A stretch of 36,178 bases of DNA from Candidatus Bathyarchaeia archaeon. GTDB taxonomy: Archaea; Thermoproteota; Bathyarchaeia; Bathyarchaeales; Bathycorpusculaceae. The first letter of the stretch is position 1; the number at the start of each line of letters is the position of its first letter. The notes beneath the pieces were generated by a model, which saw only the letters and a list, made by a program, of their open reading frames with translations, ran no database searches and was not told the origin of the DNA. The DNA is taken from NCBI GenBank assembly GCA_038883795.1, contig JAVZLK010000013.1:1-36178 (forward strand), read 5' to 3'. Shown here one piece after another: positions 3,114 through 32,283 of the stretch. The position numbers were made by a program, and so were the translations under genes.

Positions 3114-4439
3114 ATGGTTGCGGACAAGAAGTTAAAAAATGCCATTGATAAATACTTCAATGCTCGAGAAACTAAAGATTTTGTGGTCGAAGCTATTAAA
3201 ACGCCACACACCAACACTAAATACTGGGAAAGGGAGCCCAATATCCATTACTATATTCAGAAATTTCTGCAACCACTTTTTGATGAGGTTGGCATTAACA
3301 CGTGGATTGATGACCAAGGAAATTTAATTGCAAGAATGGGTAAAGGAAAAAGCGGTAAAAGAACTCTAATTATACAGCATGCGATGGCATGGGGAGCAGC
3401 AGAAGACGAAGATGAGTATGCCCATTTAAGCCCAATCCATGAGCCCGGCGAGGTCTTAGACGCTGAGAATCTCAACATTGATGGGTTTAACCCCAAAGAA
3501 TTTGGTGTTGAAGGCGAAGTGGTTTGGGGGAGAGATGCCAGCGAAACAATACCCTCAACAATTGCTGCGCTAGAGGCTGCCCGAACCTTGGCACGCGCTG
3601 GAATTGAAATACCCGGTGAAGTGGTATTCATAGTCACGTCCGGAGGGCATCAGGGCAGTTCAGACAACATATTTCATTTGATTTTTAATGATGAAATCAA
3701 AGCAGATATGGCTGTACATGCAGCCTGTATGGCCGCGGGGCAGCAATTGACGATAGGTGTTGGAAGTCTTGGAAGAGTTGATATAAAGGTAACAGTATAT
3801 GGAAGGTTGGGTCACACTTCAGATTATAAACAAGAGAAGGCGATGAATGCTATTGAAGGTGCTTTTACTGCCTTACAGCGACTTAGAAAGATTATGCCTT
3901 TCCCTCCTGGACCTGTAGACCCAGATTTTGGCGTTGGACCAAAACTGACTCCCATTGCTATAGAAAGTTACCCAAAACCTCCGACATTTAAATGGGGACT
4001 AGGCAGCGGTGGACATACAAATCAAGACGTGGTAAGAATTGTTTTTGACAGACGAATCTTGCCAGGAGAGAGTGTTGATAATGCCGTTAAACAGATGGAA
4101 GACGCCATAGGCGATATTTCACCGTTTAAATATAAATTAGAAAGAGGGGCGTACCACTTCCCGTGGAAGGTCCCTAAAGATGCACCTGTTGTTAAAATAT
4201 TGTCTGACGGTGTAAGGGTGATGTTAGGGAAAGAGCCGAGGCTGTCATATTCTACAGCAGCTTGGGATCACGGCTCAGTAAATAAATTAGGCATACCTTG
4301 CGTTAAATTTGGCGCTGGTGGACCTATTTGCTCTGATCCGCCGATCGGGCCCCACACTAAACACGAATTTGCAGTACTAAACTGGATTTACGACGTCTCA
4401 AAAGTTTACGCATACTTTGCAGTTAAGTCGACATCTTAA
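3114..4439 (+). CDS. M20/ArgE-DapE family metallohydrolase-fold protein with degenerate metal site
   Basis: DDQGNLIAR, WGR, dimerisation domain (GRVDIKVTVYGRLGHTS, NAI, FDRRILPGE), FGAG and HTKHE are present; HxD, EE and EP motifs are altered. Confidence 0.85.
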   Translation: MVADKKLKNAIDKYFNARETKDFVVEAIKTPHTNTKYWEREPNIHYYIQKFLQPLFDEVGINTWIDDQGNLIARMGKGKSGKRTLIIQHAMAWGAAEDEDEYAHLSPIHEPGEVLDAENLNIDGFNPKEFGVEGEVVWGRDASETIPSTIAALEAARTLARAGIEIPGEVVFIVTSGGHQGSSDNIFHLIFNDEIKADMAVHAACMAAGQQLTIGVGSLGRVDIKVTVYGRLGHTSDYKQEKAMNAIEGAFTALQRLRKIMPFPPGPVDPDFGVGPKLTPIAIESYPKPPTFKWGLGSGGHTNQDVVRIVFDRRILPGESVDNAVKQMEDAIGDISPFKYKLERGAYHFPWKVPKDAPVVKILSDGVRVMLGKEPRLSYSTAAWDHGSVNKLGIPCVKFGAGGPICSDPPIGPHTKHEFAVLNWIYDVSKVYAYFAVKSTS

Positions 4440-4455
4440 TAACATATTATAAGGG

Positions 4456-5190
4456 ATGGCGATGTTGGAAGGAGAAAACGTGACCGTACGATTTGGCGGC
4501 TTGACGGCTTTAAATAATGTAAATTTTAAAGTGGAGAAAAATAGAGTAGTAGGTTTAATAGGCCCCAACGGAGCTGGAAAAACAACATTGTTCAACTGTA
4601 TTAGTGGCGTTGTACACCCTTGTAAAGGTGATATATTTTTTAATGGGGAAAAAATTACTGGTCTGGTTCCAGATCAAATAACTAAGCGTGGTATTGCAAG
4701 GACTTTTCAGATTCCACATCCATTCAATGATATGACTGGTGTCGAAAATGTTATGGTTGCTATTCTTTATGGGCGGAAAAAATCAGTGAGCTTTGCAGAA
4801 AGTAAACATGAGGCTGTACGCATTCTTGATTTAGTGGGTTTAAGTGATAAAGGAAACGTTATGGCAAAACATTACACATTAGTTGATAAAAGAAAATTAG
4901 AGGTGGCAAGAGCTTTGGCGGTTGAACCGGAACTTATCTTGCTAGATGAGGTGGTTGCCGGTATGAACCCAACAGAGGCCGTAGAAGCAATGCAACTTAT
5001 TGGAAAAATTCGAAAAGAGCTCCATATTACAATTTTCTGGATCGAACATGTGATGAAGGCAATAATGAATGTTGCAGATAAAATAATAGTCTTGGAATCT
5101 GGCAGTAAAATATGTGAGGGCCAACCTAAGGAGGTTGCTTCCGACAGAAAAGTTATATCTGCATATTTGGGGGAAAGATATGCCTTCTGA
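4456..5190 (+). CDS. livG: Branched-chain amino acid-type ABC transporter ATP-binding subunit
   Basis: FGGLTAL, Walker A GPNGAGKTT, GIARTFQ, Walker B ILLDE, IEH, AYLG. Confidence 0.95.
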   Translation: MAMLEGENVTVRFGGLTALNNVNFKVEKNRVVGLIGPNGAGKTTLFNCISGVVHPCKGDIFFNGEKITGLVPDQITKRGIARTFQIPHPFNDMTGVENVMVAILYGRKKSVSFAESKHEAVRILDLVGLSDKGNVMAKHYTLVDKRKLEVARALAVEPELILLDEVVAGMNPTEAVEAMQLIGKIRKELHITIFWIEHVMKAIMNVADKIIVLESGSKICEGQPKEVASDRKVISAYLGERYAF

Positions 5191-5902
5191 ACAACGAATT
5201 CTAGAAGTTAATAATATCAGTGCAGGCTATGGAGAACTTAATGTGCTAAGTGAAGTTTCTTTTTATATGAAAGAAGGTGAAATGGTCGCTTTACTGGGCG
5301 CTAATGCCATGGGAAAGACAACAACACTAAGGGCAATATCCGGGCTGATTAGACCAAACTCCGGCGAGATTATTTTTGATGGCAGAAGAATTAATAAAGT
5401 TCCTCCACATAAGATAGTTGAACTCGGATTGATTCACGTACCTGAAGGACGGCAATTATTTACTAATATGACTGTGCTGGAGAACCTAGAAATGGGCGCT
5501 TACATCAAAAGAGCAGAAGAAAAAATAAAAGATAACATGGAGTTTGTTTTCCAATTATTCCCCGTTCTTAAAGAACGAAAGCATCAATTAGCCGGCACGC
5601 TCAGTGGCGGTGAACAGCAGATGCTGGCAATAGCACGCGGTTTAATGGCATGTCCTAAGCTTCTTATGCTGGATGAGCCTTCTTCTGGCCTCGCGCCCAA
5701 ACTTGTTGAAAAACTGTATGAAACAATAAAACAAGTTAACGCTGCGGGAATAGCGTTGCTTATTGTCGAACAATATGTAATGCACGCATTGCAGACAGTT
5801 GAACGGGCATATATTATGGAAAACGGAAGAATTGTCCTAGAGGGACAGAGTAAAGACTTATTAAACAACGACTATGTCAAGAAAGTTTATTTGGGCTTAT
5901 AG
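5180..5902 (+). CDS. livF: Branched-chain amino acid-type ABC transporter ATP-binding subunit
   Basis: GANAMGKTT, VPEGRQLF, LSGGEQQ, LMLDEPS, VEQ. ATG 5180 overlaps the livG stop. Confidence 0.95.
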   Translation: MPSEQRILEVNNISAGYGELNVLSEVSFYMKEGEMVALLGANAMGKTTTLRAISGLIRPNSGEIIFDGRRINKVPPHKIVELGLIHVPEGRQLFTNMTVLENLEMGAYIKRAEEKIKDNMEFVFQLFPVLKERKHQLAGTLSGGEQQMLAIARGLMACPKLLMLDEPSSGLAPKLVEKLYETIKQVNAAGIALLIVEQYVMHALQTVERAYIMENGRIVLEGQSKDLLNNDYVKKVYLGL

Positions 5903-5913
5903 GTGTGAGTTGT

Positions 5914-6774
5914 ATGTTAACATTAATCATTCAAGGGTTAATTAGCGGCATTTTACTTGGTGGTGTGTATGCATTATTGTCAGCAGGGCTAAGTCTATAT
6001 TTTGGCGTTGCACGCGTAGCAAATTCAGCTCATGCAGCCTTTGCAATTTTTGCAGCTCATATAGCACTCTTTCTTTATGGTTTAGCGGGAGTTGATCCCA
6101 TTCTGTCGATACCCATTATAATGCTTATACTTTTTATAATTGGAGCTGTTCAACAAAAAGTTCTTGTTAATCAAGTGATTCAGCAACATCCCTTGACAAG
6201 GTTGACCTTAACCTTTTTTGTAGCAATTGTTGTGGAAAATGCTATGATATTATTCTGGCAAAATATTTATAGATCAATAATTACCCCGTACGCGATTGGT
6301 TCAATAGTATTATATGGAATTTCATTCCCGTTAATACGCGTCGTTGCATTTATTTTATCCATGGCTACGTTAGTTTTTCTGATGCTAATTCTGAAATATA
6401 CAAAAATTGGAAAGGCCATACGGGCAACCGCGGAAAATGGAGAAGCAGCTCAGATTTGTGGAGTGAATATAAGCCTCATTTATACACTAACCGCCGGGAT
6501 CGCTTTTAGTTTAGGGGGGTTAGGAGGAGTTCTACTAGGATTACTCTTCACATTTTATCCTGCGGCACACGTATTCTGGATTGGGAAAATGTACACAATT
6601 GTTATTCTAGGTGGAATTGCGAGTATAGAGGGGTCCTTCGTCGCTGCATTTATAATAGGGTTCCTTGAGGCTTTCGTAGGGATATATTTGTCCATTATGT
6701 GGGCTTCAGTAATTTCGTGGATGATGGTGTTATTAATGCTGTCATTTCGACGTGGGGGGCTTCTTGGAAAATGA
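5914..6774 (+). CDS. livH: Branched-chain amino acid-type ABC transporter permease
   Basis: Hydrophobic; GGVYALLSAGLSL, NSAH, GKAIRATAEN, VILGG. Confidence 0.92.
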   Translation: MLTLIIQGLISGILLGGVYALLSAGLSLYFGVARVANSAHAAFAIFAAHIALFLYGLAGVDPILSIPIIMLILFIIGAVQQKVLVNQVIQQHPLTRLTLTFFVAIVVENAMILFWQNIYRSIITPYAIGSIVLYGISFPLIRVVAFILSMATLVFLMLILKYTKIGKAIRATAENGEAAQICGVNISLIYTLTAGIAFSLGGLGGVLLGLLFTFYPAAHVFWIGKMYTIVILGGIASIEGSFVAAFIIGFLEAFVGIYLSIMWASVISWMMVLLMLSFRRGGLLGK

Positions 6775-7721
6775 AATTTGAAAAAAATAAATTTTTATTC
6801 TCGTTTGGACTAGTTGTGGTTTTTCTAGCAATTATTCTACCATTGATTAAACAAGTTTATCTGCTAAGTTCGATTATTTTAATATTAATGAATTATGCCA
6901 TTTACGCTGGGTGGAATATTTTAGGGGGGTTTACAGGCTACAACAATTTCGGGCACGTTGCCTTTTTTGGAATTGGAGCTTACATCGCCGCGATGTTAAC
7001 GAAGTATTTTGGACTTTACTTATGGAGTTTGCCTATAATAATAGCTGCAACCTCAATAATCGCCGCATTAGTAGGGTGGCCCCTTTTACGGTTAAGGGGA
7101 ATATACTTTGGTTTGGGTACAATTCCTATTAATTACATTTTCCAATATTTAATAATTCTTTTACCTTTTACTGGAGGAGCTTTAGGACTAGTTTTAAAGT
7201 CGACAATTTCACTTGACCCCTTGAGCTTCGAAATACTATACTATGAGTTATTCCTTGTTCTGGCCGCCCTTACTTTTATTATATCATATAAGTTACTCAA
7301 TTCAAGGATGGGGCTGGGTTTAATTGCGATTAGAGAGGATGAAGATACGGCGTTAGTTTTTGGCGTTCCAGTCACTAAACTCAAGGTTATGGCTTTTATA
7401 GTTAGCGCAATTCCGACAGCTCTAGCAGGGGGGCTTTATGCATGCTACACACTTTATGTGGAGCCAGCGGCAGTATTTATGTTTTCCATATCGCTGTACT
7501 CAATCGGAGCCAATTACCTTGGAGGCAGAGGAACCGTAATGGGGCCTCTTATATCTAGCGTGATAATCACAACTTTGATGGAGCAACTTCGCTTTGCCAT
7601 TGGAGTAGCATATGAAGGTTTAAGTATGCTTATCTTTGGCTTAATCATTATTTTAATAATCCTTTATTGCCCAGAAGGAATTGTAGGTCGACTAAAAAAG
7701 AAATCCAAAATGTTTTTCTGA
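6771..7721 (+). CDS. livM: Branched-chain amino acid-type ABC transporter permease
   Basis: GFTGYNNFGHVAFFGIGAY, LRLRGIYF, AIREDE, LGGRGT. ATGA overlap with the livH stop. Confidence 0.92.
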   Translation: MKFEKNKFLFSFGLVVVFLAIILPLIKQVYLLSSIILILMNYAIYAGWNILGGFTGYNNFGHVAFFGIGAYIAAMLTKYFGLYLWSLPIIIAATSIIAALVGWPLLRLRGIYFGLGTIPINYIFQYLIILLPFTGGALGLVLKSTISLDPLSFEILYYELFLVLAALTFIISYKLLNSRMGLGLIAIREDEDTALVFGVPVTKLKVMAFIVSAIPTALAGGLYACYTLYVEPAAVFMFSISLYSIGANYLGGRGTVMGPLISSVIITTLMEQLRFAIGVAYEGLSMLIFGLIIILIILYCPEGIVGRLKKKSKMFF

Positions 7722-7810: not shown

Positions 7811-10057
7811 TTATCCTTTAGTACAAAATAAATTAGATATTTCTGCAGCCTTGTAAATTCTGCAAAGTGCTGTTCTAAGAGGCCATGTTCCTATTTGTTG
7901 GTTACAGCAATTAGGATCATCGTTAGTGCAAACGTTTATGTTTGACAGCCAAACACCGCCTAGCCATGGTTCTTCGGCGGGAAGTTCTGGATACCACCAT
8001 CCATGCTCGGCATGGATTATGTCTGGATCCATGCCATCAAAAAGTGTTGCCTTTTGAAGAACTTTACCTCTTAAAGTTTCAATCCACACCCAGTCTCCTT
8101 CGTTTATGCCGAGCTTTTTGGCTGTTTCAGGGTGAATTTGGACCAATGGGTAAGGATGCAATTTACGGACGGATTGGACGTTTCGCCATTCCGAGTGAAA
8201 GAACTGACGGGTTCTGCCTCCAGTAATAAGGGTATATGGGAATTTTTCAGCAAGTTCTGGATTACTGATAGGGCTTTCAGACGGCTCTTCATAGTACGGC
8301 AGAGGATCATATCCAAGCTTCTCGAGAATTGTTGAATACAACTCAACTTTCCCGGTGGGAGTAGCAAATCCTAAAGGCTTACCGGTGTCAGGGTTGATCT
8401 TCTCATACTTCTTAAACTCTTGATTCCTATGCTCATAGCGAACATTATGAACTAAATTTTTAAAAGTTTGCCCCATTTCTTTTACACACCAATCATAGCA
8501 TTCTTCTAGATTTTTCCATGGCCAATACTCCCGCTGGCCAAGCCTAAGGCCAAGTTCACGCCAGAATTCATATTCATTCCTTCTATCATATTCGCCGGGA
8601 ACACATGATGGTAATGCAGCCTCACCAAAAATAGTGTATGGTGCATAGTCGTCAAAATTCCATAAAACAGGTCTTTCAAGCCATGATGCAGCTGGTAGAA
8701 CGTAATCTGCCAACATTGCGCTAGGGGTCATAAAACAGTCAAAAACTACGTATAACTCAAGGTTTAGACTTTTCAAAGCTTTATAGACGAGTTTTGTGTT
8801 TGCCTGTGTAACCATGGGATTGCTATCGCTCGTTATTAAGGCTTTAATGGGATATGGTTTTCCTTCAAGTATCGCCCTATAAAGGGTTGGACCGTGAGCT
8901 TGCGTAATCCCTGTCGGTCTGCACCACACTTTCTTTTGGCAATCTGAAATGATTCGCCTCCCAAGGACTTGAAACAACTTAAACCGTTCACATCCAAGTT
9001 GTTTCATTCTCCAAGCAGCTTCCATCGCCATCAATGTGAGCTCAGCCTTCCTCATTTTTGGATGAGGCCCTGTCAATTCCTCGCCTCCTTCAACATCGAT
9101 GTTACCTGTTAATGCGGCAAGAATCCACCTTGCATGCAAAGCTTGAGCGTTGTTAGGTAAATGTTCAATCCCCATTCCTTCGATCATAACTCCAGGCTTG
9201 TTTGTCGCATACATCCTAGCGGCTTCTCTAATCTTATCCTTTGGAACGCGAGTGATTTTTTCGACTTTTTCCAGCGGGTATTCTTTTATACGCTCCTTTA
9301 ATTTATTAAATCCGTAACACCAATTTTCAACAAAATAATTGTCATACAATTCCTCCTCAATTATCACATTTATCATTCCCAATAGTAAGGCAGCATCCGT
9401 ACCAGGCCTAAGTTTTAGCCAGACATCAGCCATAGAGGCGGATTTTGTGCGTCTAGGATCGATTACGATGAGTTTTGCGCCTCTTTTTCTTGCTTCTAAG
9501 ATTATTTTAGCGGTTTTGGGACGTGAGATTAGGGGTTCGCAACCTAAAAGCACAATACACCTGCTTGTACTTTTCACTGAATAAAGAGGGAACATGCCGC
9601 AAACAACTTCCGCCATAAGAGCTCTTACAGCAAAGCATACCGTAGCTTGCCCTACAATATTGGGACTGCCAAGAATAGAAAAGAACCGCGCCTTACATTC
9701 GATGTCAACCGTTCTGGGTTCGGTGCCGTGGGTCGCAGCTATAGCTTCTGGTCCGTATTTTTCTTTTATTTCTTTAAGTTTTGCTGCAATTTCATCTAGC
9801 GCTTGATCCCATGAAATTCTTTCCCATTTTCCCTCGCCCCTTTCACCCACCCTTTTCAAAGGATAATTAAGACGCCCAGGATGGTAAAACCATTCTTTAG
9901 CTGCAAGTAATCTTGGACATCCTTTATTTGATGGATAAACCTCAACGGGATAGTTTGGATCCGGCTCAACTTTCAAAAGTCGACCATTCTCAACGTAGAC
10001 AAGAACGCCGCATTCACCTTTACACCATGTACAAATAGACTTCTTTACTTCGATCAT
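7811..10057 (-). CDS. Mo/W-bisPGD oxidoreductase (DMSO reductase superfamily, acetylene hydratase-like clade), 748 aa
   Basis: N-terminal CxxCxxxC..C Fe-S motif (CTWCKGEC...GCP), WERISWDQALDEIA, Cys metal ligand (ATVCF), ADYVLPAASWLE, ATPTGKVEL, HAEHGWW; no Tat signal. Confidence 0.92.
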   Translation of the reverse strand: MIEVKKSICTWCKGECGVLVYVENGRLLKVEPDPNYPVEVYPSNKGCPRLLAAKEWFYHPGRLNYPLKRVGERGEGKWERISWDQALDEIAAKLKEIKEKYGPEAIAATHGTEPRTVDIECKARFFSILGSPNIVGQATVCFAVRALMAEVVCGMFPLYSVKSTSRCIVLLGCEPLISRPKTAKIILEARKRGAKLIVIDPRRTKSASMADVWLKLRPGTDAALLLGMINVIIEEELYDNYFVENWCYGFNKLKERIKEYPLEKVEKITRVPKDKIREAARMYATNKPGVMIEGMGIEHLPNNAQALHARWILAALTGNIDVEGGEELTGPHPKMRKAELTLMAMEAAWRMKQLGCERFKLFQVLGRRIISDCQKKVWCRPTGITQAHGPTLYRAILEGKPYPIKALITSDSNPMVTQANTKLVYKALKSLNLELYVVFDCFMTPSAMLADYVLPAASWLERPVLWNFDDYAPYTIFGEAALPSCVPGEYDRRNEYEFWRELGLRLGQREYWPWKNLEECYDWCVKEMGQTFKNLVHNVRYEHRNQEFKKYEKINPDTGKPLGFATPTGKVELYSTILEKLGYDPLPYYEEPSESPISNPELAEKFPYTLITGGRTRQFFHSEWRNVQSVRKLHPYPLVQIHPETAKKLGINEGDWVWIETLRGKVLQKATLFDGMDPDIIHAEHGWWYPELPAEEPWLGGVWLSNINVCTNDDPNCCNQQIGTWPLRTALCRIYKAAEISNLFCTKG
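8669..8735. repeat. 67-bp perfect direct repeat, copy 1 (copy 2 at 10978-11044)
   Basis: Base-by-base identical; encodes FMTPSAMLADYVLPAASWLERP in both paralogs. Confidence 0.95.
9743..9883. repeat. 141-bp perfect direct repeat, copy 1 (copy 2 at 12298-12438)
   Basis: Base-by-base identical; 47 codons, HPGRLNYPL...KEKYGPEA. Confidence 0.95.
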
Positions 10058-12600: not shown

Positions 12601-13322
12601 TTGATTTCCTCTGGCGTTATATATGGCTTTTCAGGAAGACTGTATCCGTACGGCTTGTCCGGCAAGTCAAGTCCCGTCACCTTAAGTCCAGCTTTAACTA
12701 TTTTCGCAACCAATGCGACTTTCCTGCCTAGCATCCATGCCATCTCAACAGCCGACGTTTCGCGTTTTAAACGTCCTGCCCGCCATTTGTCCCGTCTTGC
12801 ATCGCCTATATTCTGTGCTGAACTTGTCGCGCCTAATTGCCCATGAGGAGAAGTCATTCCAATGGGTATCATATCGTTGTGGAAAAAGAAGTAGTGTATA
12901 GTTAGTAGAGTAAACTCTTGACCTGAATTCTTGCCCCCGCCAACCGCAATTGCTCCGCCAACTTTTAGCCTCAGATGTTTCTCTTTAGTTCCAATACCGC
13001 GCATTCTGTCAAGCATGTTCTTACAAAGTCCGCTCACTGTCCCATAATAAACTGGTGATCCAATTATTATTCCATCGGCTGAGAGGAGTTTTGGGTAAAG
13101 CATGTTCATATCGTCATTTTGGACGCATTTGTTATGTTCTATGCAATAATCACATCCTAAACATGGATTAATTTTTTTACCAACAAGGTTTAAGTACTCA
13201 GTTTCTGCATCAGACACTGATAAACTTCCTTTAAGCGCTGCTTTAACGAGAACCTCTGTATTACCATGCCTTGGACTAGCTGAAATTCCCAGAATCTTGA
13301 CCTTTAGCGTTTTGTTTTCCAT
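12597..13322 (-). CDS. Iron-sulfur flavoprotein (Isf/WrbA-like flavodoxin family)
   Basis: GISASPRHGNT, compact CxxCxxCx5C motif (CLGCDYCIEHNKC), GSPVYYG, GGGKNSGQE. ATGA overlap with the next gene. Confidence 0.92.
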   Translation of the reverse strand: MENKTLKVKILGISASPRHGNTEVLVKAALKGSLSVSDAETEYLNLVGKKINPCLGCDYCIEHNKCVQNDDMNMLYPKLLSADGIIIGSPVYYGTVSGLCKNMLDRMRGIGTKEKHLRLKVGGAIAVGGGKNSGQEFTLLTIHYFFFHNDMIPIGMTSPHGQLGATSSAQNIGDARRDKWRAGRLKRETSAVEMAWMLGRKVALVAKIVKAGLKVTGLDLPDKPYGYSLPEKPYITPEEIK

Positions 13323-18723: not shown

Positions 18724-18749
18724 GGTAATGTAAACAGTTAAGCTTAATT

Positions 18750-21961: not shown

Positions 21962-21975
21962 GAGGAACATTAATA

Positions 21976-22188: not shown

Positions 22189-22194
22189 TACATT

Positions 22195-24042: not shown

Positions 24043-24062
24043 TAAAGTAAGGTGAAATAAAT

Positions 24063-24605
24063 ATGTCGTCAACAGATTATGTTGCTGAAAAACACTTAAA
24101 AAGTAAATGTATAAGTGTGGATATCGATAGGTGCATCGGCTGCGGAATTTGCGAGTTAATTTGTTCATTTGTTAAAAGCGGCGAAAAATCTTTTAATCCG
24201 CTATACTCTAGGATTCATGTGACACAGATCAATGGGGAAAATGTGGCTGTTGCGTGTTTAATGTGTGAAGATGCGCCATGCGTTAAGGCTTGCCCGCGAA
24301 ATGCGCTAACGCAATCGAAAGAAAACGGTATAATCTTAGTTGATGAAAGTAAATGTACAGGTTGCGGATGGTGCCTTATTGCTTGCAATTTTGGGAGCAT
24401 AATTTTCACAGAGAAAGGAAAAGTCACAACATGTGACCTTTGCGCTGGAAGAGAAAAAAGCCGTGTATTCCCTGGACGACCAATGACGCAGCAAGCATGC
24501 ATTGCGTGGTGTCCTGAAGAAGCAATAAGCCTCGTAGATAAACATAGGTTATCCCAAAAAATCCTACTTGAAACTATAGCAAAGCTGAGAAGTCCTGAAA
24601 CGTGA
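24063..24605 (+). CDS. 4x[4Fe-4S] polyferredoxin subunit (DmsB/NrfC/AorA-like)
   Basis: 16 Cys in four groups: CIGCGICELIC, CLMCEDAPCVKAC, CTGCGWCLIAC, CDLC...CIAWC. Confidence 0.93.
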   Translation: MSSTDYVAEKHLKSKCISVDIDRCIGCGICELICSFVKSGEKSFNPLYSRIHVTQINGENVAVACLMCEDAPCVKACPRNALTQSKENGIILVDESKCTGCGWCLIACNFGSIIFTEKGKVTTCDLCAGREKSRVFPGRPMTQQACIAWCPEEAISLVDKHRLSQKILLETIAKLRSPET

Positions 24606-24860
24606 TGAAGAGCTGTCAGAGTTAACGTCTGCGGCTTGTTAAGAATCATATTCCCATAATTTCTTGAGCGTAGACTAGGTGATATGAGTAGGAGATTTGA
24701 TAGCTAAAGTCACTTACACTGATTAAGTTGGTGTCCCCAAAATTTAATAGGTGAGCGGTAATAAAGTGAAAAATTACAAATTGTTGATATGCCCTACACG
24801 GCAAAAACTAATTAATCCGCAAATTAGAAAACCATTCAACAGAGGCGCAAGATCTTGGAT

Positions 24861-26048
24861 ATGCCATTAGAAGGTATTCGAGTTTTAGACTTGTCTCGAA
24901 TTTTAGCGGGCCCCTTCTGCTCAATGATCTTAGCTGATTTAGGAGCTGATGTAATAAAAATTGAAACGCCTGGGATAGGGGATGATACAAGATCCTGGGG
25001 GCCTCCATTTATTAATGGTGAAAGCGCATACTTCCTTTGCATCAATCGAAACAAAAAAAGCCTAACTCTAGATCTCAAAAGAGATTATGGAAAGAAAATT
25101 CTATACGAATTAGTAGAAAAATCTGATGTATTCTTGGAGAATTTTCGACCCGGAGTCACTGAAGAACTAGGTGTAGACTATGGAACTATTTGTAAAATTA
25201 ATCCACGCATTATCTACTGTTCAATTACCGGATTCGGACAAAATGGACCCTATAGAAATTGGCCAGCTTACGATATAATTATTCAAGGCATGGGTGGGCT
25301 AATGAGTATTACAGGCGAATTAAATAGGCCTCCAGTACGAATAGGTGTGGCAGTAACGGATATAGGAGCTGGCATGTACGCTGCTATCGCGATACTTTCA
25401 GCCTTAATCGCTCGAAATAAAATCGGGAAAGGCCAGTTTATTGACGTATCACTGTTTGACTCAACAATTTCATGGTTAACTTACATGGCGGCAAACTATT
25501 TCGCAACAGGTGAGGTTCCTAAGCGTATAGGGTCAGGGCATCCAAATATCGTGCCATACCAATGTTTTAAAACACGCGACAAAAAATACTTAACAGTTGC
25601 GGTAGGAAACGATAGACTCTGGAGGAGTTTCTGTAAAGCAATAGGCATGGAAAACTTGATAAATAACCCTATGTTCGCTACTAACTCGAAGCGAGTCGAA
25701 AATAGAAAGAAGCTAATCTCTGAATTGGAAAAAGTTTTTCTAAGTAAGACACGTGATGAGTGGATTAAGATTTTGCTAAAGGAAGGTGTGCCTTGTGGCC
25801 CTGTGTACACCATTAGCGAAATATTCAATGATTCGCAAGTTTTATTTAGAGAAATGCTAATTGAAATGGAACATGCAAAAGCAGGCAGAATAAAGCAAAT
25901 TGGAAATCCGATGAAATTTTCCAGAACACCTGGAAAAATTAGCAGACCGCCACCGCTTTTGGGCGAGCACACCGAAGAAATTCTAAAAAATCTGTTGGGA
26001 TATTCTTATGGAGAAATAAGAAAACTAAAAAGAGAAGGAATTATATAG
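24861..26048 (+). CDS. Class III CoA-transferase (CaiB/BaiF/Frc family)
   Basis: PLEGIRVLDL, LAGP, LGADVIKIE, NRNKKS, ENFRPG, catalytic Asp in VTDIGAG, PPLLGEHT. Confidence 0.96.
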   Translation: MPLEGIRVLDLSRILAGPFCSMILADLGADVIKIETPGIGDDTRSWGPPFINGESAYFLCINRNKKSLTLDLKRDYGKKILYELVEKSDVFLENFRPGVTEELGVDYGTICKINPRIIYCSITGFGQNGPYRNWPAYDIIIQGMGGLMSITGELNRPPVRIGVAVTDIGAGMYAAIAILSALIARNKIGKGQFIDVSLFDSTISWLTYMAANYFATGEVPKRIGSGHPNIVPYQCFKTRDKKYLTVAVGNDRLWRSFCKAIGMENLINNPMFATNSKRVENRKKLISELEKVFLSKTRDEWIKILLKEGVPCGPVYTISEIFNDSQVLFREMLIEMEHAKAGRIKQIGNPMKFSRTPGKISRPPPLLGEHTEEILKNLLGYSYGEIRKLKREGII

Positions 26049-26161: not shown

Positions 26162-27103
26162 TCATTGTAAATGCAGTAGCTTTCGTGCATTTAGCTCAAA
26201 AATTTTAAATTTATCTTCATCAGAAATTGGCAGTTCCATTACACTTTTGAGATTTTCTCCAATAAATACTTCACCATTTTTTGGACCGAATGGATAATCT
26301 GTAGCAAATAATATTCGATCAGGTCCAAAGAAGGAGTAGCCGCATGCCAACCCGCTCCGCCACCCGTCTATAGCGGTATCTGCATAAAAAAGTTTAAAGT
26401 TGTCTAAAATTTGCTTTGGGCTTTGAAACGTGGGTTTGTTTAGCAGTAAGCTTGTCTGGAGTCTGCCAACAAGATGCGGTAAGACCCCGCCAAGATGATG
26501 TACAACTATTTTAAGTGTTGGATATCTATGAAAGACCCCGCCCATTACGAGTCTGCACATGGCTTGCGTTGTGTCAAAAGGCCATCCGATGCTTAACATC
26601 AAGCCGTAATCTTTGAGGAGATAGTAACTCTCACAGTCAGCGGGGTGCACTAAAATAGGAAAATCATACTTAACCGCTTTTTCATATAATGGATAAAAAT
26701 CTTGTGAATCCAACGGTTTGCCTCGGATATTTGACGAAACTAATATGCCTTTAAAACCAAGTTCTCCAATTGCTCTACTAACTTCGTCTAACGCTTCTCC
26801 AACAGATGAAAGAGGTACGCAGGCAATACCTTCAAATTTGCCTAAATGTTTGTTGCATATATCGAATACGGCATCATTGAACGTCTTGCATAGACGCACT
26901 TCTTCAGCAACACTAAGACCCTTAATGGCATTGCTTAGAGGCATGCTTAATACCTGCATGGCAACATTATACTTTTCCATATGTTTCAATCTTTTTTGAG
27001 GATGCACAAAATACGGATTTGACGCAAAGCTTAGCACACGCGATTCCTTTACTATAGAAAATATTTGTTTAGGATAAATATGACAGAAGAAGTCAATAAT
27101 CAA
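26162..27103 (-). CDS. Amidohydrolase-2 family protein, ACMSD/aromatic-acid decarboxylase-like
   Basis: IIDFFCH (first His of HxH replaced), ILVHP, GWPFDT, HHLGG, FATDYPF; starts 41 bp downstream of ubiD. Confidence 0.9.
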   Translation of the reverse strand: MIIDFFCHIYPKQIFSIVKESRVLSFASNPYFVHPQKRLKHMEKYNVAMQVLSMPLSNAIKGLSVAEEVRLCKTFNDAVFDICNKHLGKFEGIACVPLSSVGEALDEVSRAIGELGFKGILVSSNIRGKPLDSQDFYPLYEKAVKYDFPILVHPADCESYYLLKDYGLMLSIGWPFDTTQAMCRLVMGGVFHRYPTLKIVVHHLGGVLPHLVGRLQTSLLLNKPTFQSPKQILDNFKLFYADTAIDGWRSGLACGYSFFGPDRILFATDYPFGPKNGEVFIGENLKSVMELPISDEDKFKIFELNARKLLHLQ

Positions 27104-27144
27104 ACCAATGACTCTCCATTATAATTGAGTAGTAAAGCGTTTGG

Positions 27145-28536
27145 TCATGTGCCGATCCCGTATTCAACCCACTTTTTCTCAACCATTTTTTTAATTTCCA
27201 TCGGTACGTCAGGCACCTCCGGGAACGCTTCCATAGGTTTTTTAGTGGCGTCAATCACCATCTTTGATATAAGACCGTGTTTTCTATTAAATGCAGAATC
27301 AATGCTGGGATCCAGTGAAGTGCCAGGAGTGTTTGGAAGTATAAATATATCCCGGTGCGGCTGTGTTCTAGTTGCTACCGCCCACATGACCTGTTTTAGA
27401 TCGAATGGATCAATATCCTCGTCGACTACAATTAAATATTTTATCATGCGTGCGGCTTCACATCCAAGTATAGCGCTTGCAATCCAATTGACAATTCCCT
27501 CAAATCTTTTTTCGACTTGAGCAACGGCTATCATTGAAACACCATCCTCAAGAATGTTAATGTTCTGTAATCCTGGCATAGGGCAAGTTCTAATGATTTC
27601 TGCTTGTAGCGACATTGAAAAAAGAATGTGATTTTCTGTTCCTACCCCAGTAAAACTAACATGATATATGGGATTGTCTCGGTACGTTACAGCTTTAATT
27701 TCAAATACTTCTCTAGGGTAGATGCCCCCATAATATCCATGGAATTCGCCGAAGGGTCCTTCGTTTTCGTATAAGTTTGGAATCACTTCGCCCTCTAATA
27801 CTATTTCGGCGGTTGCTGGTACTTCTAGTGGTATGGTTTCACATTTAACTAATTCTATTGGTTGTCCCCTTAATGTGCCAGCCATGGCAATTTCGTCAAC
27901 TTCATACGCAAACGGTGCTGCAGCACAAATCCATATCACCGGATCAGCGCCTATCGCAACAGCTACTGGAAATCGATTTCCTTTAGCTTCAGCTTTTGAT
28001 TTTTGTATGTACATGTGCCTAAAGGGTGTTAATTGAAAACCTGTTGTTCTTTTGCCCCGAACCATCATCCTATAAATTCCAACATTTCGCCAACCTGTTT
28101 CCGGGTCCTTACTGATCACACACGGGGCAGTAATATATGGCCCACCATCTTTTTCATTCCAGTATGGAATTGCCCATGGAAGTTTCATCAAGTCTATTTC
28201 ATCTCCGATTAGTATGTTTTCTTTGCAAGGACCGTCTTTTACCACCACTGGTTCTGTTGGACCCTTCCTAAGAGCATTTATCCATTTCTTAGTGACCTCC
28301 TCTTCGGTGGTTTCCAATGCTAAGGCAAATCTTCTTCTCGTAGCGATTAGATTTGCTAATATTGGAGCATTGTAGCCCTTTATTTTTTCAAAAAGTAATG
28401 CAGGAGATTTTGCATCGGTAGCTTTTCTACATATAGCGCTCAATTCGAAGCGGGGGTCTACCTCAGCTTTGATTTTTATTAACTCGCCTTCTTTTTCAAG
28501 AATTCCCAAAAATTCTCTTAGGTCATTATAAGGCAT
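27145..28536 (-). CDS. ubiD: UbiD-family prFMN-dependent (de)carboxylase
   Basis: DLREFL, PALLFE, DGGPYIT, NVGIYR, EIVLEG, EGPFGEFHGYY, VVDEDID, LDPS, IDAT. Confidence 0.95.
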   Translation of the reverse strand: MPYNDLREFLGILEKEGELIKIKAEVDPRFELSAICRKATDAKSPALLFEKIKGYNAPILANLIATRRRFALALETTEEEVTKKWINALRKGPTEPVVVKDGPCKENILIGDEIDLMKLPWAIPYWNEKDGGPYITAPCVISKDPETGWRNVGIYRMMVRGKRTTGFQLTPFRHMYIQKSKAEAKGNRFPVAVAIGADPVIWICAAAPFAYEVDEIAMAGTLRGQPIELVKCETIPLEVPATAEIVLEGEVIPNLYENEGPFGEFHGYYGGIYPREVFEIKAVTYRDNPIYHVSFTGVGTENHILFSMSLQAEIIRTCPMPGLQNINILEDGVSMIAVAQVEKRFEGIVNWIASAILGCEAARMIKYLIVVDEDIDPFDLKQVMWAVATRTQPHRDIFILPNTPGTSLDPSIDSAFNRKHGLISKMVIDATKKPMEAFPEVPDVPMEIKKMVEKKWVEYGIGT

Positions 28537-28686: not shown

Positions 28687-29400
28687 TTAAGTCTTTAATA
28701 CACCCGAAATTTGCTCTCTTTTAAGCAATGTTTGAGTAAAGATTCTTGATGTGGTTATCCAACCAAAAAGTCGGCTGATATTCCATAAAGTTGCCTTTTT
28801 GGCATATTTGGGGCCTACCGCCTCGCAACAATCTGATATAACGATAGGCCAAAACTCTCTGTGGAAGGCATCACGCACGGTGGATTCAACGCAAATGTTT
28901 AATGCAACTCCGGTAAAAAACAGGTATTTAAGTTTTAAATGGCTCAATACTTTTTCTAAATCTGTGTTAACAAAACCGCTGTATCTTTGTTTGTCGATGA
29001 TTACATCCCCTGCCATGGGTTTAAGTTCATTAATAATTTCAGCGCCCCATGTTCCTTTAATTAACAATTTTTCTTTAAGTTCTGGGCTTTGACGTGCGAG
29101 CACGGAGCATCGTGCTTTCCAGTAGTGGGGAGAATCTGCATTTCCAGTATCGGATAAATCGGGTGCATGTGTATGCCTTATGTATATTATTTTAAAACCA
29201 AGCTTCCTTGAAACGTCCAAAACATTTGTAAGCGGTTTAATTAAACATCTAAGGTTCAATATATCATAGCCAAGAATATCAAACATTCCTCCTTTACTTA
29301 AAAATGCGTTCTGTGCATCTACTACAACAACTGCGGTTTTTGCCAAATCTACTAATATAGGCGCTGGTTTAGCTGAAATCTTTACAATTCTTTTTTCCAC
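28687..29400 (-). CDS. rutB: Cysteine hydrolase (isochorismatase family), RutB-like amidohydrolase
   Basis: Asp-Lys-Cys triad (VVDAQN, KQRYSGF, NICVESTVRD) plus RutB-like segments SPHYWK, KLLIKGTW, AVGPKYAKKATLWNI..FGW. Family is certain; orthology is not. Confidence 0.8.
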   Translation of the reverse strand: MEKRIVKISAKPAPILVDLAKTAVVVVDAQNAFLSKGGMFDILGYDILNLRCLIKPLTNVLDVSRKLGFKIIYIRHTHAPDLSDTGNADSPHYWKARCSVLARQSPELKEKLLIKGTWGAEIINELKPMAGDVIIDKQRYSGFVNTDLEKVLSHLKLKYLFFTGVALNICVESTVRDAFHREFWPIVISDCCEAVGPKYAKKATLWNISRLFGWITTSRIFTQTLLKREQISGVLKT

Positions 29401-29620: not shown

Positions 29621-29650
29621 GGAAAGAGCTAACAAAAAGAGGGGATTAAT

Positions 29651-30883
29651 ATGCAAAAAAAATGGATTATAGTCGCTTCATGTGTCATAGTGATTCTCAT
29701 CGTTGCTGGAATTGTCGCCTACTATTATTGGCCTCGTCCACAAGCTAAAACTGAAATACTGATAGGTGCTGCCGTATCACAAACAGGGGCTTTGGCACCA
29801 ATGGGGAACAAAGTAATTGCAGGCTATAGACTTTGGGAGGAATACATTAATAGTGAAGGAGGTCTATTGGGTATGACAGTTCGCATTATAATGTATGATG
29901 ACCAGTCTGATCCGACTAGGACAAAGAGCTTATATGAAAGGCTAATAACAGTTGATCAAGTAGACTTTGTTTTAGGGCCATATTCAAGCGGTTGCTCTTT
30001 AGCTATGGCTCCGGTTGCTGAAAAATATAAGAAAATTACCATCCACCCACTGTCCACCGCAGGGGAACTATATAACAACCCAGATTATGATTACCAGTTC
30101 TTAGCTAAAGTGGGAGGAATAAGCGGTATAGGAGTGCCCAGCATGGAAGAAGACTATTTGCATGTGCAATTCTTTAAAAGCTTCGCAGATATTAGAACAG
30201 TTGGCGTAATTAATACAGCTGATTATTATCCGCGATCTCGCGCCAACTCTTTTAAGGCGTTAGCACAATACTTCGGATTAAGAGTGACTTTTGAAGATGA
30301 AATACCAAAAGAAGCAACGGATGTTACTGCCGTTATAACCAGAATTAAGGAAGCAAACCCTGATATCTTTGTAGTGATTGGATTTTTGCCAATTGAAACA
30401 TTGCTTATTCGAACAGCCTTTGAGCAAGGTTACCATCCAAAAATGATATTTGGTGCGACGTGTAATATTCCTGAGGCTTGGAACATTCTTGGGGACAAGT
30501 GTCAAGGGGTTGTAACATCGTTAGATTTCCTTCCATCCCTAAACTTTACGGAATCTAAAAAATTTGTCCAATTATATCAAAATAAATATGGAAAGTTACC
30601 AGAAGGACACTTTGAAGCATTAGGTTTCGCATCTTGTCAACTTCTCGAAGCTGCAATCAAAGCAACAAAATCTCTCAACCAAGATAGAATTAAAGAATGG
30701 CTAATTAACAATGAAGTTGAAACATGTGTAGGACCATGGAAACTTAGTAAAGTTGCTTTTGACCTAGGTTACAAATACGTCCCGGAGTACTTTAAGATGA
30801 TACCTCAATGGCAAAATGGCAAAATGGAAATTGTTTACCCAACTGAAATAGCAACTGCAACACCAATTTACCCAATTCCATGA
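29651..30883 (+). CDS. LivK-like (PBP type 1) ABC solute-binding protein with N-terminal membrane anchor
   Basis: KK plus a hydrophobic helix, SQTG, INSEGGLLG, YDDQSDP, LGPYSSG, QWQNG. Confidence 0.92.
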   Translation: MQKKWIIVASCVIVILIVAGIVAYYYWPRPQAKTEILIGAAVSQTGALAPMGNKVIAGYRLWEEYINSEGGLLGMTVRIIMYDDQSDPTRTKSLYERLITVDQVDFVLGPYSSGCSLAMAPVAEKYKKITIHPLSTAGELYNNPDYDYQFLAKVGGISGIGVPSMEEDYLHVQFFKSFADIRTVGVINTADYYPRSRANSFKALAQYFGLRVTFEDEIPKEATDVTAVITRIKEANPDIFVVIGFLPIETLLIRTAFEQGYHPKMIFGATCNIPEAWNILGDKCQGVVTSLDFLPSLNFTESKKFVQLYQNKYGKLPEGHFEALGFASCQLLEAAIKATKSLNQDRIKEWLINNEVETCVGPWKLSKVAFDLGYKYVPEYFKMIPQWQNGKMEIVYPTEIATATPIYPIP

Positions 30884-30896
30884 TTTTTTTATTTTT
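30884..30896 (+). terminator. Oligo-T terminator
   Basis: TTTTTTTATTTTT immediately after the stop codon. Confidence 0.6.
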
Positions 30897-31053
30897 AATT
30901 CTTCACCTTTATCTGAACCAGTTTTAAGATTTAAATCTCTGCATACTTGGAAGTACCTTTAATTCACTCTTTTATCATTGAGACTACCTAACTGTAATAA
31001 TAAAGTTTATTTTAGAAAAGGGCGAAAATGACAGCTAATTGGATGCGATGTGT

Positions 31054-32283
31054 ATGGCAAAGTGGATATCTAAGAATTGGTGGGTAAGCCCCCTAAATTT
31101 TCTTGAGGAAGTACAAAAAAATTTTAATCTCCCAAATAAAGTGGTTATTCACGATATCACATTACGAGATGGCGAGCAGCAAGCGGGCATTGTTTTTAAT
31201 AAAAAGGATAAAATTGAGATTGCACGAATGCTAGACGAAGTTGGCGTCCATCGAATTGAGGCTGGAATGCCTGCTGTTTCGAGAGAGGACAAGGAGGCTG
31301 TGAAAGCTATTGCACATGAGGGATTAAACGTCAAAGTTTTTTGTTTTGCTCGCTGCATGAAACGCGATGTTGACCTCGCATTGGAATGTGATGTTGACGG
31401 AATTGCTATGGAAATTCCTTCCAGTGAACATTTGATAAGATATGCATATGAATGGCCACTTGAAAAGGCTGTAGATTTATCGGTTGAAGCAACAAGCTAT
31501 GCTGCCAAACATGGTCTACATGTGGCTTTCTTCACAATAGATGGCACTAGAGCTGATCTAAAATGGTGGTTCAGCCTAGTGGACAAGGTCGCAACTGAAG
31601 GGCATATGGACTCGCTTGTTTTAGTAGATACTTTTGGTGTTTGCAATCCTGAGGCAATACGTTATTTAACAAGAAAAGCACGTGATCATTTTAGCAAACC
31701 TCTTGAGGCTCATTTTCACAACGACTTTGGATTAGCTGTTGCAAACACTTTAGCGGCAGTAACTGAAGGGGCGGAAATAATTCATACAACGGTAAACGGC
31801 ATAGGAGAGAGAATGGGAAACGCGGATTTGGCTGAAGTGGCGCTTGCTTTAGAAGCTTTATATGGGGTTAAGCTGGACTTAAAGTACAATAAACTATACA
31901 AACTTTCAAAGCTTGTTGAAAGACTTTCAGGAGTTAAAATGCCGCCGCACAAGGCAGTCGTTGGAGATGGAGCGTTCAAAGTTGAGTCTGGAATAATAGC
32001 AGGTTGGTGGAAAAATTTGGGGAAACATAATAAACCGTTAGTTATGTTTCCTTACCTTTGGAACTTAGTTGGACAGAAAGAGGTGAAAATATTACTTGGC
32101 AAAAAAAGTGGAAGGGACTCTATTTTGTTTAAGCTTAAGGAATTAGGGATTGACTTATCCACACTTGACGAAAATAAAATAGATAAAATACTAGATGAGG
32201 TAAAGGAAGAATCAATCAAAAGAAAATCGCCAATTTCGGAGGAAGTTTTGAGGCAAATCCTACAAAGAAATTGTTATTTGTGA
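31054..32283 (+). CDS. DRE-TIM metallolyase (homocitrate/isopropylmalate/citramalate synthase-like, no regulatory domain)
   Basis: DITLRDGEQ, IEAG, DTFG, HFHNDFGLAVAN, NGIGERMGN, GKKSG. Start could be 31039, 31048 or 31054. Confidence 0.92.
   Translation: MAKWISKNWWVSPLNFLEEVQKNFNLPNKVVIHDITLRDGEQQAGIVFNKKDKIEIARMLDEVGVHRIEAGMPAVSREDKEAVKAIAHEGLNVKVFCFARCMKRDVDLALECDVDGIAMEIPSSEHLIRYAYEWPLEKAVDLSVEATSYAAKHGLHVAFFTIDGTRADLKWWFSLVDKVATEGHMDSLVLVDTFGVCNPEAIRYLTRKARDHFSKPLEAHFHNDFGLAVANTLAAVTEGAEIIHTTVNGIGERMGNADLAEVALALEALYGVKLDLKYNKLYKLSKLVERLSGVKMPPHKAVVGDGAFKVESGIIAGWWKNLGKHNKPLVMFPYLWNLVGQKEVKILLGKKSGRDSILFKLKELGIDLSTLDENKIDKILDEVKEESIKRKSPISEEVLRQILQRNCYL

Follow-up and report, generated by a model that had tools for sequence, protein, structure and literature searches.

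The 36,178-bp contig JAVZLK010000013.1 (assembly GCA_038883795.1), analysed here in full as the window, is contig C13 of an 81-contig, 2.18-Mb bin assigned to a Candidatus Bathyarchaeia archaeon (87% complete, 3.4% contamination). Between positions 3114 and 32283 it carries an unbroken run of open reading frames (ORFs) with family matches, which an earlier note had read as one anaerobic catabolic island next to a tRNA-Gln gene. The block is a lineage-specific insert, more than chance would give. We favour the reading, held with evenly balanced confidence, that it fills a variable site between tRNA-Gln(CTG) and the MscL and radical SAM genes as a non-mobile mosaic, made of a core module, whose mechanism we infer, and of add-on modules. 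The filling appears to comprise at least nine transcription units that differ in their history and form neither a single pathway nor an island acquired in one transfer; a mosaic is preferred to one pathway because the modules differ in distribution and affinity and because paralogues of household genes are interspersed among them. The conserved core consists of a Liv-type binding protein and importer and of a triad encoding a PF01180 flavoenzyme, an AOR-family tungstoenzyme and a polyferredoxin, in an order that is conserved on one other contig.

Twenty-two ORFs of the run were supported by family matches, namely five Liv transport genes, sixteen enzymes or electron carriers and one chaperonin, so that the contiguity claimed earlier stands while the count of 23 genes does not. 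The family calls of the earlier note were upheld by family and PDB matches for UbiD, two Amidohydro_2 proteins, the Mo enzymes of the acetylene-hydratase clade, a DHODH/PreA-like fold, RutB-like and M20 proteins, two AORs and a Liv importer; measured against NCBIfam equivalog cut-offs, all scores fell short except that of the generic UbiD family. At least nine strand switches or transcription units lie across 3114-32283. No regulator, integrase or transposase family was matched among ORFs of at least 90 aa in this run, and no conjugation gene was found in the family scans of the window. The statement that the block is free of regulators, integrases and housekeeping genes thus held in its first two parts and failed in the third, as a chaperonin, an aminotransferase and an HMGL-type synthase are present.

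The variable site beside tRNA-Gln(CTG)

The left anchor of the site is a tRNA-Gln(CTG) gene (2618..2691, plus strand, found by ARAGORN). The right anchor is formed by MscL (65 bits), which shares the minus-strand stretch 33322..34623 with a 185-aa membrane protein and a 72-aa ORF, together with a radical SAM/DUF1848 gene (34671..35534, minus strand). In the nearest sampled genomes, G402 (contig C4) and G455 (contig C12), the order orf101-Usp-tRNA-Gln(CTG)-MscL-radical SAM lies on one contig, and the distance from the tRNA to MscL is 587 bp and 1,395 bp, respectively, as against 31,554 bp in the window. The tRNA-Gln is 99-100% identical in G402, G455, G016 and G308, the flank proteins are 80-88% identical to those of G402 and G455, and MscL is 84% identical in G455 and G308.

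Ten related genomes were compared in total: the five nearest, four of the same genus, and G012. The DNA of the window matched the five nearest (G308, G408, G402, G455 and G016) at 73-100% in the flanks. Interior matches were restricted to pieces of aminotransferase paralogues and to a few items in two of the genomes. In G016 these were HMGL (73%), a piece of LivF and a 204-nt part of the 748-aa Mo enzyme; in G308, a 173-nt part of the 615-aa AOR. The four same-genus genomes and G012 likewise contained almost no DNA counterpart of the interior. The earlier proposal of an accessory region at a tRNA-linked site is thus borne out by the short spacing in G402 and G455 and by an interior without DNA counterparts. 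The site varies across the family, since the spacing between the tRNA and the radical SAM gene is ~38 kb in G012 and ~0.8 kb on C37, another contig of the same bin.

A direct repeat of 70 nt (81% identical) was found at 2795-2864 and 33623-33692. Its left copy lies in a membrane-protein gene relic (2755..2999, minus strand), where a 44-aa ORF (2755-2889) resembles part of the 185-aa ORF that holds the right copy (33322-33879). The DNA at 2864-2993 is 81% identical to a piece of G308:C11, which adjoins MscL there. This suggests recombination at copies of the membrane-protein gene, with the swapped arrangement in G308 left unexplained: the two G308 fragments (C4:892-1083 and C11:48189-48320) occupy exchanged positions, and both contigs end there. 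No att-type repeat of the tRNA 3' end was present, the sole flanking repeat being the 70-nt piece of the membrane-protein gene.

At the right end of the run lies an HMGL-type synthase of the isopropylmalate/citramalate/homocitrate-like kind (31039..32283, plus strand; HMGL-like 213 bits), followed by two small ORFs of 198 aa (unk198) and 53 aa (orf53) without Pfam match (32316..33122, minus strand). The synthase is 77% identical to a gene on G016:C6, whose neighbours are a homologue of orf53 (63% identical to that of the window), a tRNA methyltransferase, fumarase subunits and an ATP-grasp synthetase. Because this counterpart sits among core genes, the right end of the "island" is core DNA, and the synthase is probably a relocated core gene and not cargo.

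The block thus shares with tRNA-linked genomic islands its adjacency to a tRNA, the empty sites in close relatives, accessory metabolic cargo and imperfect direct repeats near both ends. It differs from them in that no integrase, recombinase, transposase or conjugation gene was found in the window, in that the repeats are pieces of a membrane-protein gene and not tRNA 3' ends of the att type, in its host-like codon usage and lack of a foreign composition, and in its HMGL end, which appears to be relocated core DNA.

The GC content of the interior is 0.395 as against 0.435 in each flank, the genome mean being 0.406, and among 458 windows of 29 kb it ranks at the 9th percentile. GC content at third codon positions is below the genome mean in every interior gene, with z values of only -0.1 to -1.8, and the codon-usage scores of the interior genes are host-like (z of -0.9 to +1.3); the compositional outliers are ORFs of the right flank (34671-36050; codon z of -2.0 and -3.5). 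In tetranucleotide composition the interior lies at the 97th percentile of distance from the bin centroid (200 size-matched draws), and contig C13 as a whole ranks 24th of 47. The interior is, as had been stated, AT-richer than both flanks, but it is close to the genome mean, and its AT-richness relative to the flanks is weak evidence for foreign origin. A recent foreign origin, considered on the basis of composition, was rejected since the deviations in GC content, codon usage and tetranucleotides are weak only.

The PF01180-AOR-polyferredoxin core

The first gene of the triad (20912..21961, plus strand; DHO_dh 112 bits) encodes a DHODH/PydA-like flavoenzyme of family PF01180; antisense ORFs within this gene gave no family match. 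It is followed by the genes for a 615-aa AOR-family tungstoenzyme and a 180-aa polyferredoxin, both assigned by family matches (22195..24605, plus strand). The other part of the core comprises an ATP-binding cassette importer, with LivG, LivF, LivH and LivM as ATPases and permeases (4456..7721, plus strand; ABC_tran, BCA_ABC_TP_C and BPD_transp_2), and a membrane-anchored LivK-type substrate-binding protein (29651..30883, plus strand; Peripla_BP_6 160 bits).

The PF01180 protein belongs to a rare subfamily: of 5.8 billion proteins, just 22 are 48-81% identical to it, with a drop to 37% or less thereafter. None of 400 other genomes of the class gave a match to it at E<=1e-40. All 21 sequences of the subfamily that were compared share Cys135, part of a VCPN motif; the cysteine of such SCPN/VCPN motifs we take to be the catalytic base of PF01180 reductases. 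A metagenome scan with the PF01180 alignment returned 80 loci, of which three were true members (L137, L138 and L139) and the other 77, ordinary DHODH-like genes at 23-31% identity, were excluded.

The first of these members lies on a 28.8-kb metagenome contig (L137/L140) that repeats much of the core. It starts with an AOR, a cupin, an MR/MLE enzyme, a PreA-like DHO_dh protein with two 4Fe-4S domains and LivGFHM; it continues with an AOR, LivK (44%), an XDH-type trio of 2Fe-2S, MoCoBD and FAD proteins, and then PF01180 (61%), AOR (46%) and polyferredoxin (56%); and it ends with MobA, MoeA, XdhC, counterparts of unk198 (47%) and orf53 (59%), and a major facilitator superfamily gene. With its 44% identity to the LivK of this contig, the binding protein of the window stands apart from its paralogues in the bin (24-27%). 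At L139 a hydantoinase-like Amidohydro_1 gene lies upstream of a 62% PF01180 relative, and at L138 PyrK-like and PreT-like genes lie downstream of a 45% relative.

A paralogous AOR-polyferredoxin pair, 44% and 50% identical to the copies of the triad, is present on contig C5 of the bin. It forms a tight operon (C5:78646-84348; L136 8620-14348) with a fumarate-reductase-like flavoprotein and a 2Fe-2S/CCG subunit, possibly an aldehyde-to-fumarate redox module. Because this operon repeats the pairing, the AOR type of the triad accompanies a C=C-reducing flavoenzyme twice.

The 615-aa AOR matched AorABC (8c0z) with 265 bits and WOR5 (6x1o) with 182 bits. Both AORs of the window, the second being a 651-aa protein encoded in a separate place (13699..15654, plus strand; AFOR_N and AFOR_C), scored best against Pyrococcus-type AOR (312-320 bits; 319 bits for the 651-aa protein with 1aor). 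BamB (4z3w) was the weakest of nine PDB matches for both (146 bits for the 615-aa and 202 bits for the 651-aa protein), and a BamBC-like ring reductase, that is a class II benzoyl-CoA reductase, made of the 615-aa AOR and the FeS protein was rejected on this ground. The triad resembles Aromatoleum AorABC and Pyrococcus WOR5 in that a gene for the AOR catalytic subunit is followed by one for a multi-cluster ferredoxin. It differs in the putative third partner, which to judge by gene order would be the PF01180 flavoenzyme in the window and the fumarate-reductase-like pair on C5; neither is an FAD/NAD subunit. When the PF01180 protein and the polyferredoxin were modelled as a complex, from alignments of 21 and 3 rows, respectively, the score was 0.00 without controls, and counts neither way.

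A precedent for the chemistry is provided by the reductive uric-acid route. In the available text of its description, a Mo enzyme dehydroxylates the substrate, a PF01180 protein (UacX) or YgfK dearomatises it, ferredoxin is suggested as the donor for the FMN-only form, and amidohydrolases together with an M20 enzyme finish the route (bioRxiv 10.1101/2025.05.19.654654). As far as the accessible portions of the two accounts go, the window shares with the uric-acid and pyrimidine clusters (XdhD, YgfK or UacX/PydA, SsnA, HyuA, YgeY) a PF01180 protein as likely ring reductase, complete with its active-site Cys, and an M20 protein along with ureido/amide hydrolases; a Mo enzyme adjoining the PF01180 gene is likewise found on the sister contig (10.1101/2025.05.19.654654, 10.1101/2025.04.24.650524). 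It differs from these clusters, as described there, in having no XDH-type enzyme, no Amidohydro_1 protein (PydB/SsnA/HyuA), no YgeW/YqeA and no YgeX, an Amidohydro_1 gene being present on L139 and the XDH-type enzyme on L137. It also differs in that its PF01180 protein falls into a separate, rare subfamily, in that its host is a thermophilic archaeon, and in the AOR and polyferredoxin genes that follow PF01180, an arrangement which the same portions of these accounts do not report. The reading of the island as a route for N-heterocycles is partly supported for the PF01180 gene and its core, given the XDH-type, hydantoinase-like and PyrK/PreT-like neighbours on three contigs, but not for the rest of the block.

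For this core we propose that an organic acid, most likely an N-heterocyclic carboxylate, would be imported by the Liv system, and that the PF01180 enzyme would then reduce a C=C bond of its ring. Low-potential electrons would reach the PF01180 enzyme via the polyferredoxin, from aldehyde oxidation by the AOR or from ferredoxin, and the Amidohydro_2, RutB-like and M20-like hydrolases could open the ring and deamidate the product. Reduction of an N-heterocycle or enoate driven by aldehyde oxidation at the Liv-PF01180-AOR-polyferredoxin core is offered as a testable hypothesis, in which substrates, electron path and links between modules are predictions throughout. Almost nothing is known at the enzyme level about the anaerobic breakdown of N-heterocycles and aromatic acids in archaea. 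If the triad works as a unit, it would represent a new way to power a difficult ring reduction by the very low potential of aldehyde oxidation, and would give a first function to this rare subfamily of PF01180 flavoenzymes.

Proposed add-on modules

The second lead after the PF01180 core is a tandem of cytoplasmic Mo/W enzymes of the acetylene-hydratase clade, predicted to bind bis-molybdopterin guanine dinucleotide (bis-MGD). They comprise 748 aa (7811..10057, minus strand) and 802 aa (10192..12600, minus strand), the latter with an insertion of ~80 aa, and are 44% identical to each other. Acetylene hydratase (2e7z) was by a wide margin the best PDB match for both, with 476 bits (748 aa) and 446 bits (802 aa), the next matches scoring 256 and 242 bits. 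An N-terminal CxxCxxxC FeS motif and the column of Cys141, the W ligand, are kept in both. Where acetylene hydratase has Asp13, a catalytic residue adjoining the second FeS cysteine, the 748-aa enzyme has Lys and the 802-aa enzyme His, and Asp was found in none of seven aligned relatives. The earlier remark on non-canonical active sites holds for these two proteins, as it does for one Amidohydro_2 protein discussed below. Neither enzyme has a twin-arginine leader: their N-termini lack an RR motif and enter the FeS motif, at residues 9-16, directly. The two genes share a tract of 159 nt with 95% identity (9738-9896 and 12293-12451), a pattern suggestive of a recent gene conversion in the parts that encode the N-termini.

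Directly upstream of the 802-aa gene, whose start it overlaps by 4 bp, lies the gene for a flavodoxin-like FMN reductase of the WrbA/FMN_red type (12597..13322, minus strand; FMN_red 105.6 bits). A 37% FMN_red homologue was found directly upstream of a Mo-enzyme relative in one of 20 loci (L111). At E<=1e-60, relatives of the Mo enzymes were present in 54 of the 301 class genomes sampled, with 51% as the best identity, and in two of 48 genomes of the family. In the closest class relatives of the 748-aa enzyme (L110 and L111, on G114:C28 and G105:C42; 48-51%), the third cysteine of the FeS motif is Ala.

Catechol dehydroxylases have been placed next to acetylene hydratase, with soluble forms free of a twin-arginine leader described and homologues noted "even in Archaea", according to the available text of that study (eLife 2020, PMC7028382). 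As in the dehydroxylases of the Gordonibacter type outlined there, the enzymes of the window are predicted to be cytoplasmic, smaller and soluble, with no twin-arginine leader (PMC7028382). They differ from the dehydroxylases in that the partner is a flavodoxin-like FMN reductase and not a small 4Fe-4S protein, from acetylene hydratase in the Lys or His next to the second FeS cysteine, and from the whole group in being two tandem paralogues; the dehydroxylases enter this comparison by description, there being no characterised catechol dehydroxylase entry in the PDB match lists of either enzyme. The FMN reductase and the two bis-MGD enzymes may form a dehydroxylase or hydratase module that would widen the substrate range of the core, and as archaeal proteins amenable to study they belong to a group in which the known enzymes act as catechol dehydroxylases.

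A further add-on that might contribute decarboxylation is encoded at 26162..28536 (minus strand) by a gene for a 463-aa UbiD decarboxylase and, 42 bp on, one for a 313-aa Amidohydro_2 protein of the ACMSD/LigW type. The UbiD protein scored 408 bits with TIGR00148 (cut-off 245) and contains all three UbiD domains (PF20695, PF01977 and PF20696). Its best PDB match was the HmfF-type structure 6h6v (292 bits), and phthaloyl-CoA decarboxylase (8oz5, 8pmk) was the weakest listed, with 103 bits; a phthalate-type route combining a family III CoA-transferase with UbiD was rejected for this reason. The nearest relatives are two metagenome proteins (P0002, 56%, and P0003, 55%), one of them labelled Bathyarchaeia. 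The next are bacterial (45-52%; 45-50% for the closest that bear a name), and all 79 loci drawn from species genomes belong to bacterial metagenome-assembled genomes (MAGs), while none of 300 other class genomes yielded a match above 44% identity. A UbiD homologue was found in 40 of the 41 genomes searched (the bin and 40 relatives) despite the scarcity of PF02441 (UbiX-type) proteins.

The 313-aa protein is nearest to ACMSD and LigW (best PDB match ACMSD, 117 bits). The first His of its N-terminal HxH motif is Phe, the motif reading F-C-H. Its named relatives are mostly archaeal, with P0160 as the closest (74%). The pair therefore agrees with HmfF-type UbiD and ACMSD/LigW-type proteins in structure match and domain content, and departs from them in its moderate identity, in the F-C-H motif and in that no UbiX-type gene was found.

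The remaining hydrolases are spread over the block. A second Amidohydro_2 protein (19775..20710, minus strand; Amidohydro_2 123 bits) retains the HxH motif but is very divergent, with LigW as best PDB match at only 50 bits and matches to PF04909 clusters. The RutB-like cysteine hydrolase of the isochorismatase family (28687..29400, minus strand; Isochorismatase 129 bits) shows candidates for the Asp, Lys and Cys triad by eye and matches RutB (8bkd) with 180 bits; it scored 220 bits with the RutB equivalog TIGR03614, below the cut-off of 378, and no other Rut family was found in the window. An M20-family hydrolase-like protein of 441 aa (3114..4439, plus strand), encoded 17 bp upstream of livG, gave 41.5 bits with Peptidase_M20 and 36.9 bits with M20_dimer, its NCBIfam matches being far under their cut-offs. 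Finally, a family III CoA-transferase (24855..26048, plus strand; CoA_transf_3 479 bits) is present as a single copy in the bin. Its best NCBIfam match is succinate-glutarate CoA-transferase (416 bits, cut-off 750), and it may be another add-on, as may the aminotransferase and 2-hydroxyacid dehydrogenase pair described below.

Competing accounts and the origin of the contig

Several findings weigh against the reading of the block as a mosaic around a redox core. The full triad is found on one other contig only, whose AOR and FeS proteins (46% and 56%) are barely closer to those of the window than are the paralogues in the bin (44% and 50%). The gap between the PF01180 and AOR genes is 233 bp, so that co-transcription may fail. 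The family scans of the window found no Amidohydro_1, XDH-type enzyme, carbamate kinase or PreT/PyrK partner, and the substrates suggested for all its proteins are predictions from family membership, at equivalog scores under the cut-off save for the generic UbiD. The supply of the UbiD cofactor, prenylated FMN, is unexplained because no UbiX-type gene was found in the bin: a PF02441 search that was positive in 14 of 14 control genomes found nothing in the 87%-complete bin, with the added caution that it is not certain to which genome the contig truly belongs, and in the five nearest genomes it returned a single match, within a 418-aa ORF. The counts of shared neighbours given below overstate independence, as the genomes are related and the families abundant. 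Lastly, the Liv system, the aminotransferase, the 2-hydroxyacid dehydrogenase and the AORs would fit plain amino-acid fermentation equally well.

This last point leads to an account that we regard as unlikely, though worth serious consideration, according to which the block is an ordinary neighbourhood of peptide and amino-acid fermentation with the remaining genes as unrelated neighbours. The Liv importer would take up amino acids or peptides, the M20 protein would trim them, and the aminotransferase would make 2-oxoacids, to be reduced by the 2-hydroxyacid dehydrogenase or turned into aldehydes that the AORs oxidise. These are common household families in the bin, which contains about 7 Liv-type systems, 6 AORs and 5-6 aminotransferase paralogues, and the closeness of both AORs to the Pyrococcus type agrees with such a role. 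The class I/II aminotransferase (Asp-aminotransferase-like; 17509-18723, plus strand) is moreover convergent with a D-2-hydroxyacid dehydrogenase, assigned by family match (minus strand, after the aminotransferase within 17509..19748), and the two duplicate an adjacent pair at C2:37907-39996 with 48-49% identity. Fermentation leaves unaccounted for, however, the rare PF01180 protein with its XDH-type, hydantoinase-like and PreT/PyrK-like neighbours, as well as the two acetylene-hydratase-clade enzymes and the HmfF-like UbiD, ACMSD/LigW-like and RutB-like proteins, and the LivK-type binding protein is far from the LivK paralogues of the bin.

An extended version of the core hypothesis would see in the block an undescribed W-dependent fermentative redox couple of thermophilic archaea. 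Electrons from aldehyde oxidation by the AOR would pass through a dedicated polyferredoxin to the PF01180 enzyme, which would dearomatise the imported N-heterocyclic carboxylate; the cytoplasmic bis-MGD enzymes would take the dehydroxylase role held by the XDH-type enzyme on the sister contig; and the UbiD/Amidohydro_2 pair would remove the carboxyl group. Taken with all its parts jointly, we consider this version improbable.

Quite improbable, in our estimation, is the original proposal of the earlier note, in which all 22-23 genes serve one O2-independent route for a hydroxy-aromatic or N-heteroaromatic acid, running from import through decarboxylation, dehydroxylation, ring reduction, hydrolytic opening and N removal to CoA entry. 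A candidate family for every step is indeed present in the block, which as a whole is absent from the ten related genomes, and the uric-acid route, as far as its published account is accessible, takes its chemical steps in the same sequence and draws on some of these families (PF01180, M20 and, as dehydroxylase, a Mo enzyme). Co-occurrence was scanned up to 10 kb on each side of the 79 bacterial UbiD relatives and around 20 class-level relatives of the Mo enzymes. In the latter, AOR recurred in four loci, ferredoxin in three, Amidohydro_2 and UbiD in two each and FMN_red in one. Around UbiD, Amidohydro_2 was found in five loci, AOR in one, a CoA-transferase in one, and a RutB-like protein together with a Mo enzyme in one, as against an unrelated ABC ATPase in 42; none of the 79 carried more than two other families of the island. 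These counts are weak support for a shared "tool-box".

The single route is further opposed by the number of strand switches and by the genes interspersed in it: the duplicated aminotransferase/dehydrogenase pair, the core-type HMGL synthase and a divergent group II chaperonin (thermosome) paralogue (15644..17296, minus strand; Cpn60_TCP1 384 bits). The latter is the fourth copy in the bin, scores below the thermosome equivalog cut-offs and is flanked by metalloenzyme genes; it is 35-36% identical to the three other copies and at best 37% to any in 40 relatives. Neither the HMGL synthase nor this chaperonin is probably a member of a pathway. The co-directional UbiD and Amidohydro_2 genes differ in affinity, the one bacterial-like and the other archaeal-like, and the sister contig keeps only the Liv/PF01180/AOR/FeS part, with the rest replaced. 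With only Amidohydro_2 recurring beside UbiD (five of 79 loci), neighbours of differing affinity and no UbiD or PF01180 orthologue in 300-400 sampled class genomes, the scattering of homologues that had been named as the refutation of a single pathway is largely what we observed, and one import-to-CoA sequence with all 23 genes is not supported. A "catabolic island" inferred from sequence can prove to be a patchwork. No description of such a gene cluster was met in the accessible portions of the literature on Bathyarchaeal acetylene hydratase, UbiD, AOR and hot springs.

The mosaic reading also has to be placed in the right genome. The host lives in hot springs, and the names of the closest database proteins make Bathyarchaeia its probable group. 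The flanks (1-2700 and 34246-35534) have a collinear counterpart within the bin, on contig C37, where orf101 and Usp (71% identical) are followed by a 3-kb spacer, a second tRNA-Gln(CTG) and a radical SAM gene (69%), and the same-genus genome G001 closely matches C37 and not the window. When 131 genomes of the family were searched, the radical SAM protein of the window was 85-86% identical to those of G308, G408, G402 and G455 and 84% to that of G016, but just 69-70% to those of C37 and the same-genus G004. Usp shows the same contrast (80-88% as against 71-74%), and the window's copy of the locus is 80-88% identical to that of genera g49 and g135 but about 70% to C37 and to the same-genus genomes. 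The bin, with 2.18 Mb as against 1.2-1.7 Mb in its congeners, contains several tRNA species in 2-4 copies (ARAGORN: Glu-TTC 4, Ser-GCT 4, Arg-TCG 3, Cys 3 and Ile 3), more than a single archaeal genome of small size would usually have and in keeping with a composite bin. Most simply, the main genome was probably binned together with a second, related population, from which C13 stems; the alternative is a xenologous duplication. Statements about the contig's "own genome" are to be qualified for this reason, as a MAG contig can belong to another population than its bin, which alters the meaning of such comparisons.

To the notion that unrelated DNA was joined into a chimera here and that the block is no real locus, for which the mismatch of C13 with the rest of the bin, the second collinear locus, the duplicated tRNAs and the size of the bin could be cited, we give hardly any credence, since mismatch and duplicated loci indicate a mis-binned whole contig and not a mis-join, the nearest relatives are the same for both flanks (g49 and g135), some of the gene order recurs on the sister contig L137, and independent assemblies contain the stretch. 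It occurs in hot-spring metagenome runs from three studies; with positions 12500-32400 divided into 30 bins, each bin is covered by contigs of X3 and of X4. Those of X3 span 18940-25238 and 26059-30288 at >=99% identity, with four differing letters each, and as they bridge several gene boundaries the gene order is not an accident of assembly. Two runs, labelled metatranscriptomic and marked "probably DNA", cover 29 of the 30 bins.

At the far right of the contig, a minus-strand ORF of 170 aa (35538-36176) has a codon z of -3.5 and a low-complexity translation, and because of this extreme codon usage and low complexity it is probably not a gene. A plus-strand ORF (35616-36176) leaves the contig at its end, its DNA matching G002 at 79% and G455 at 91%.

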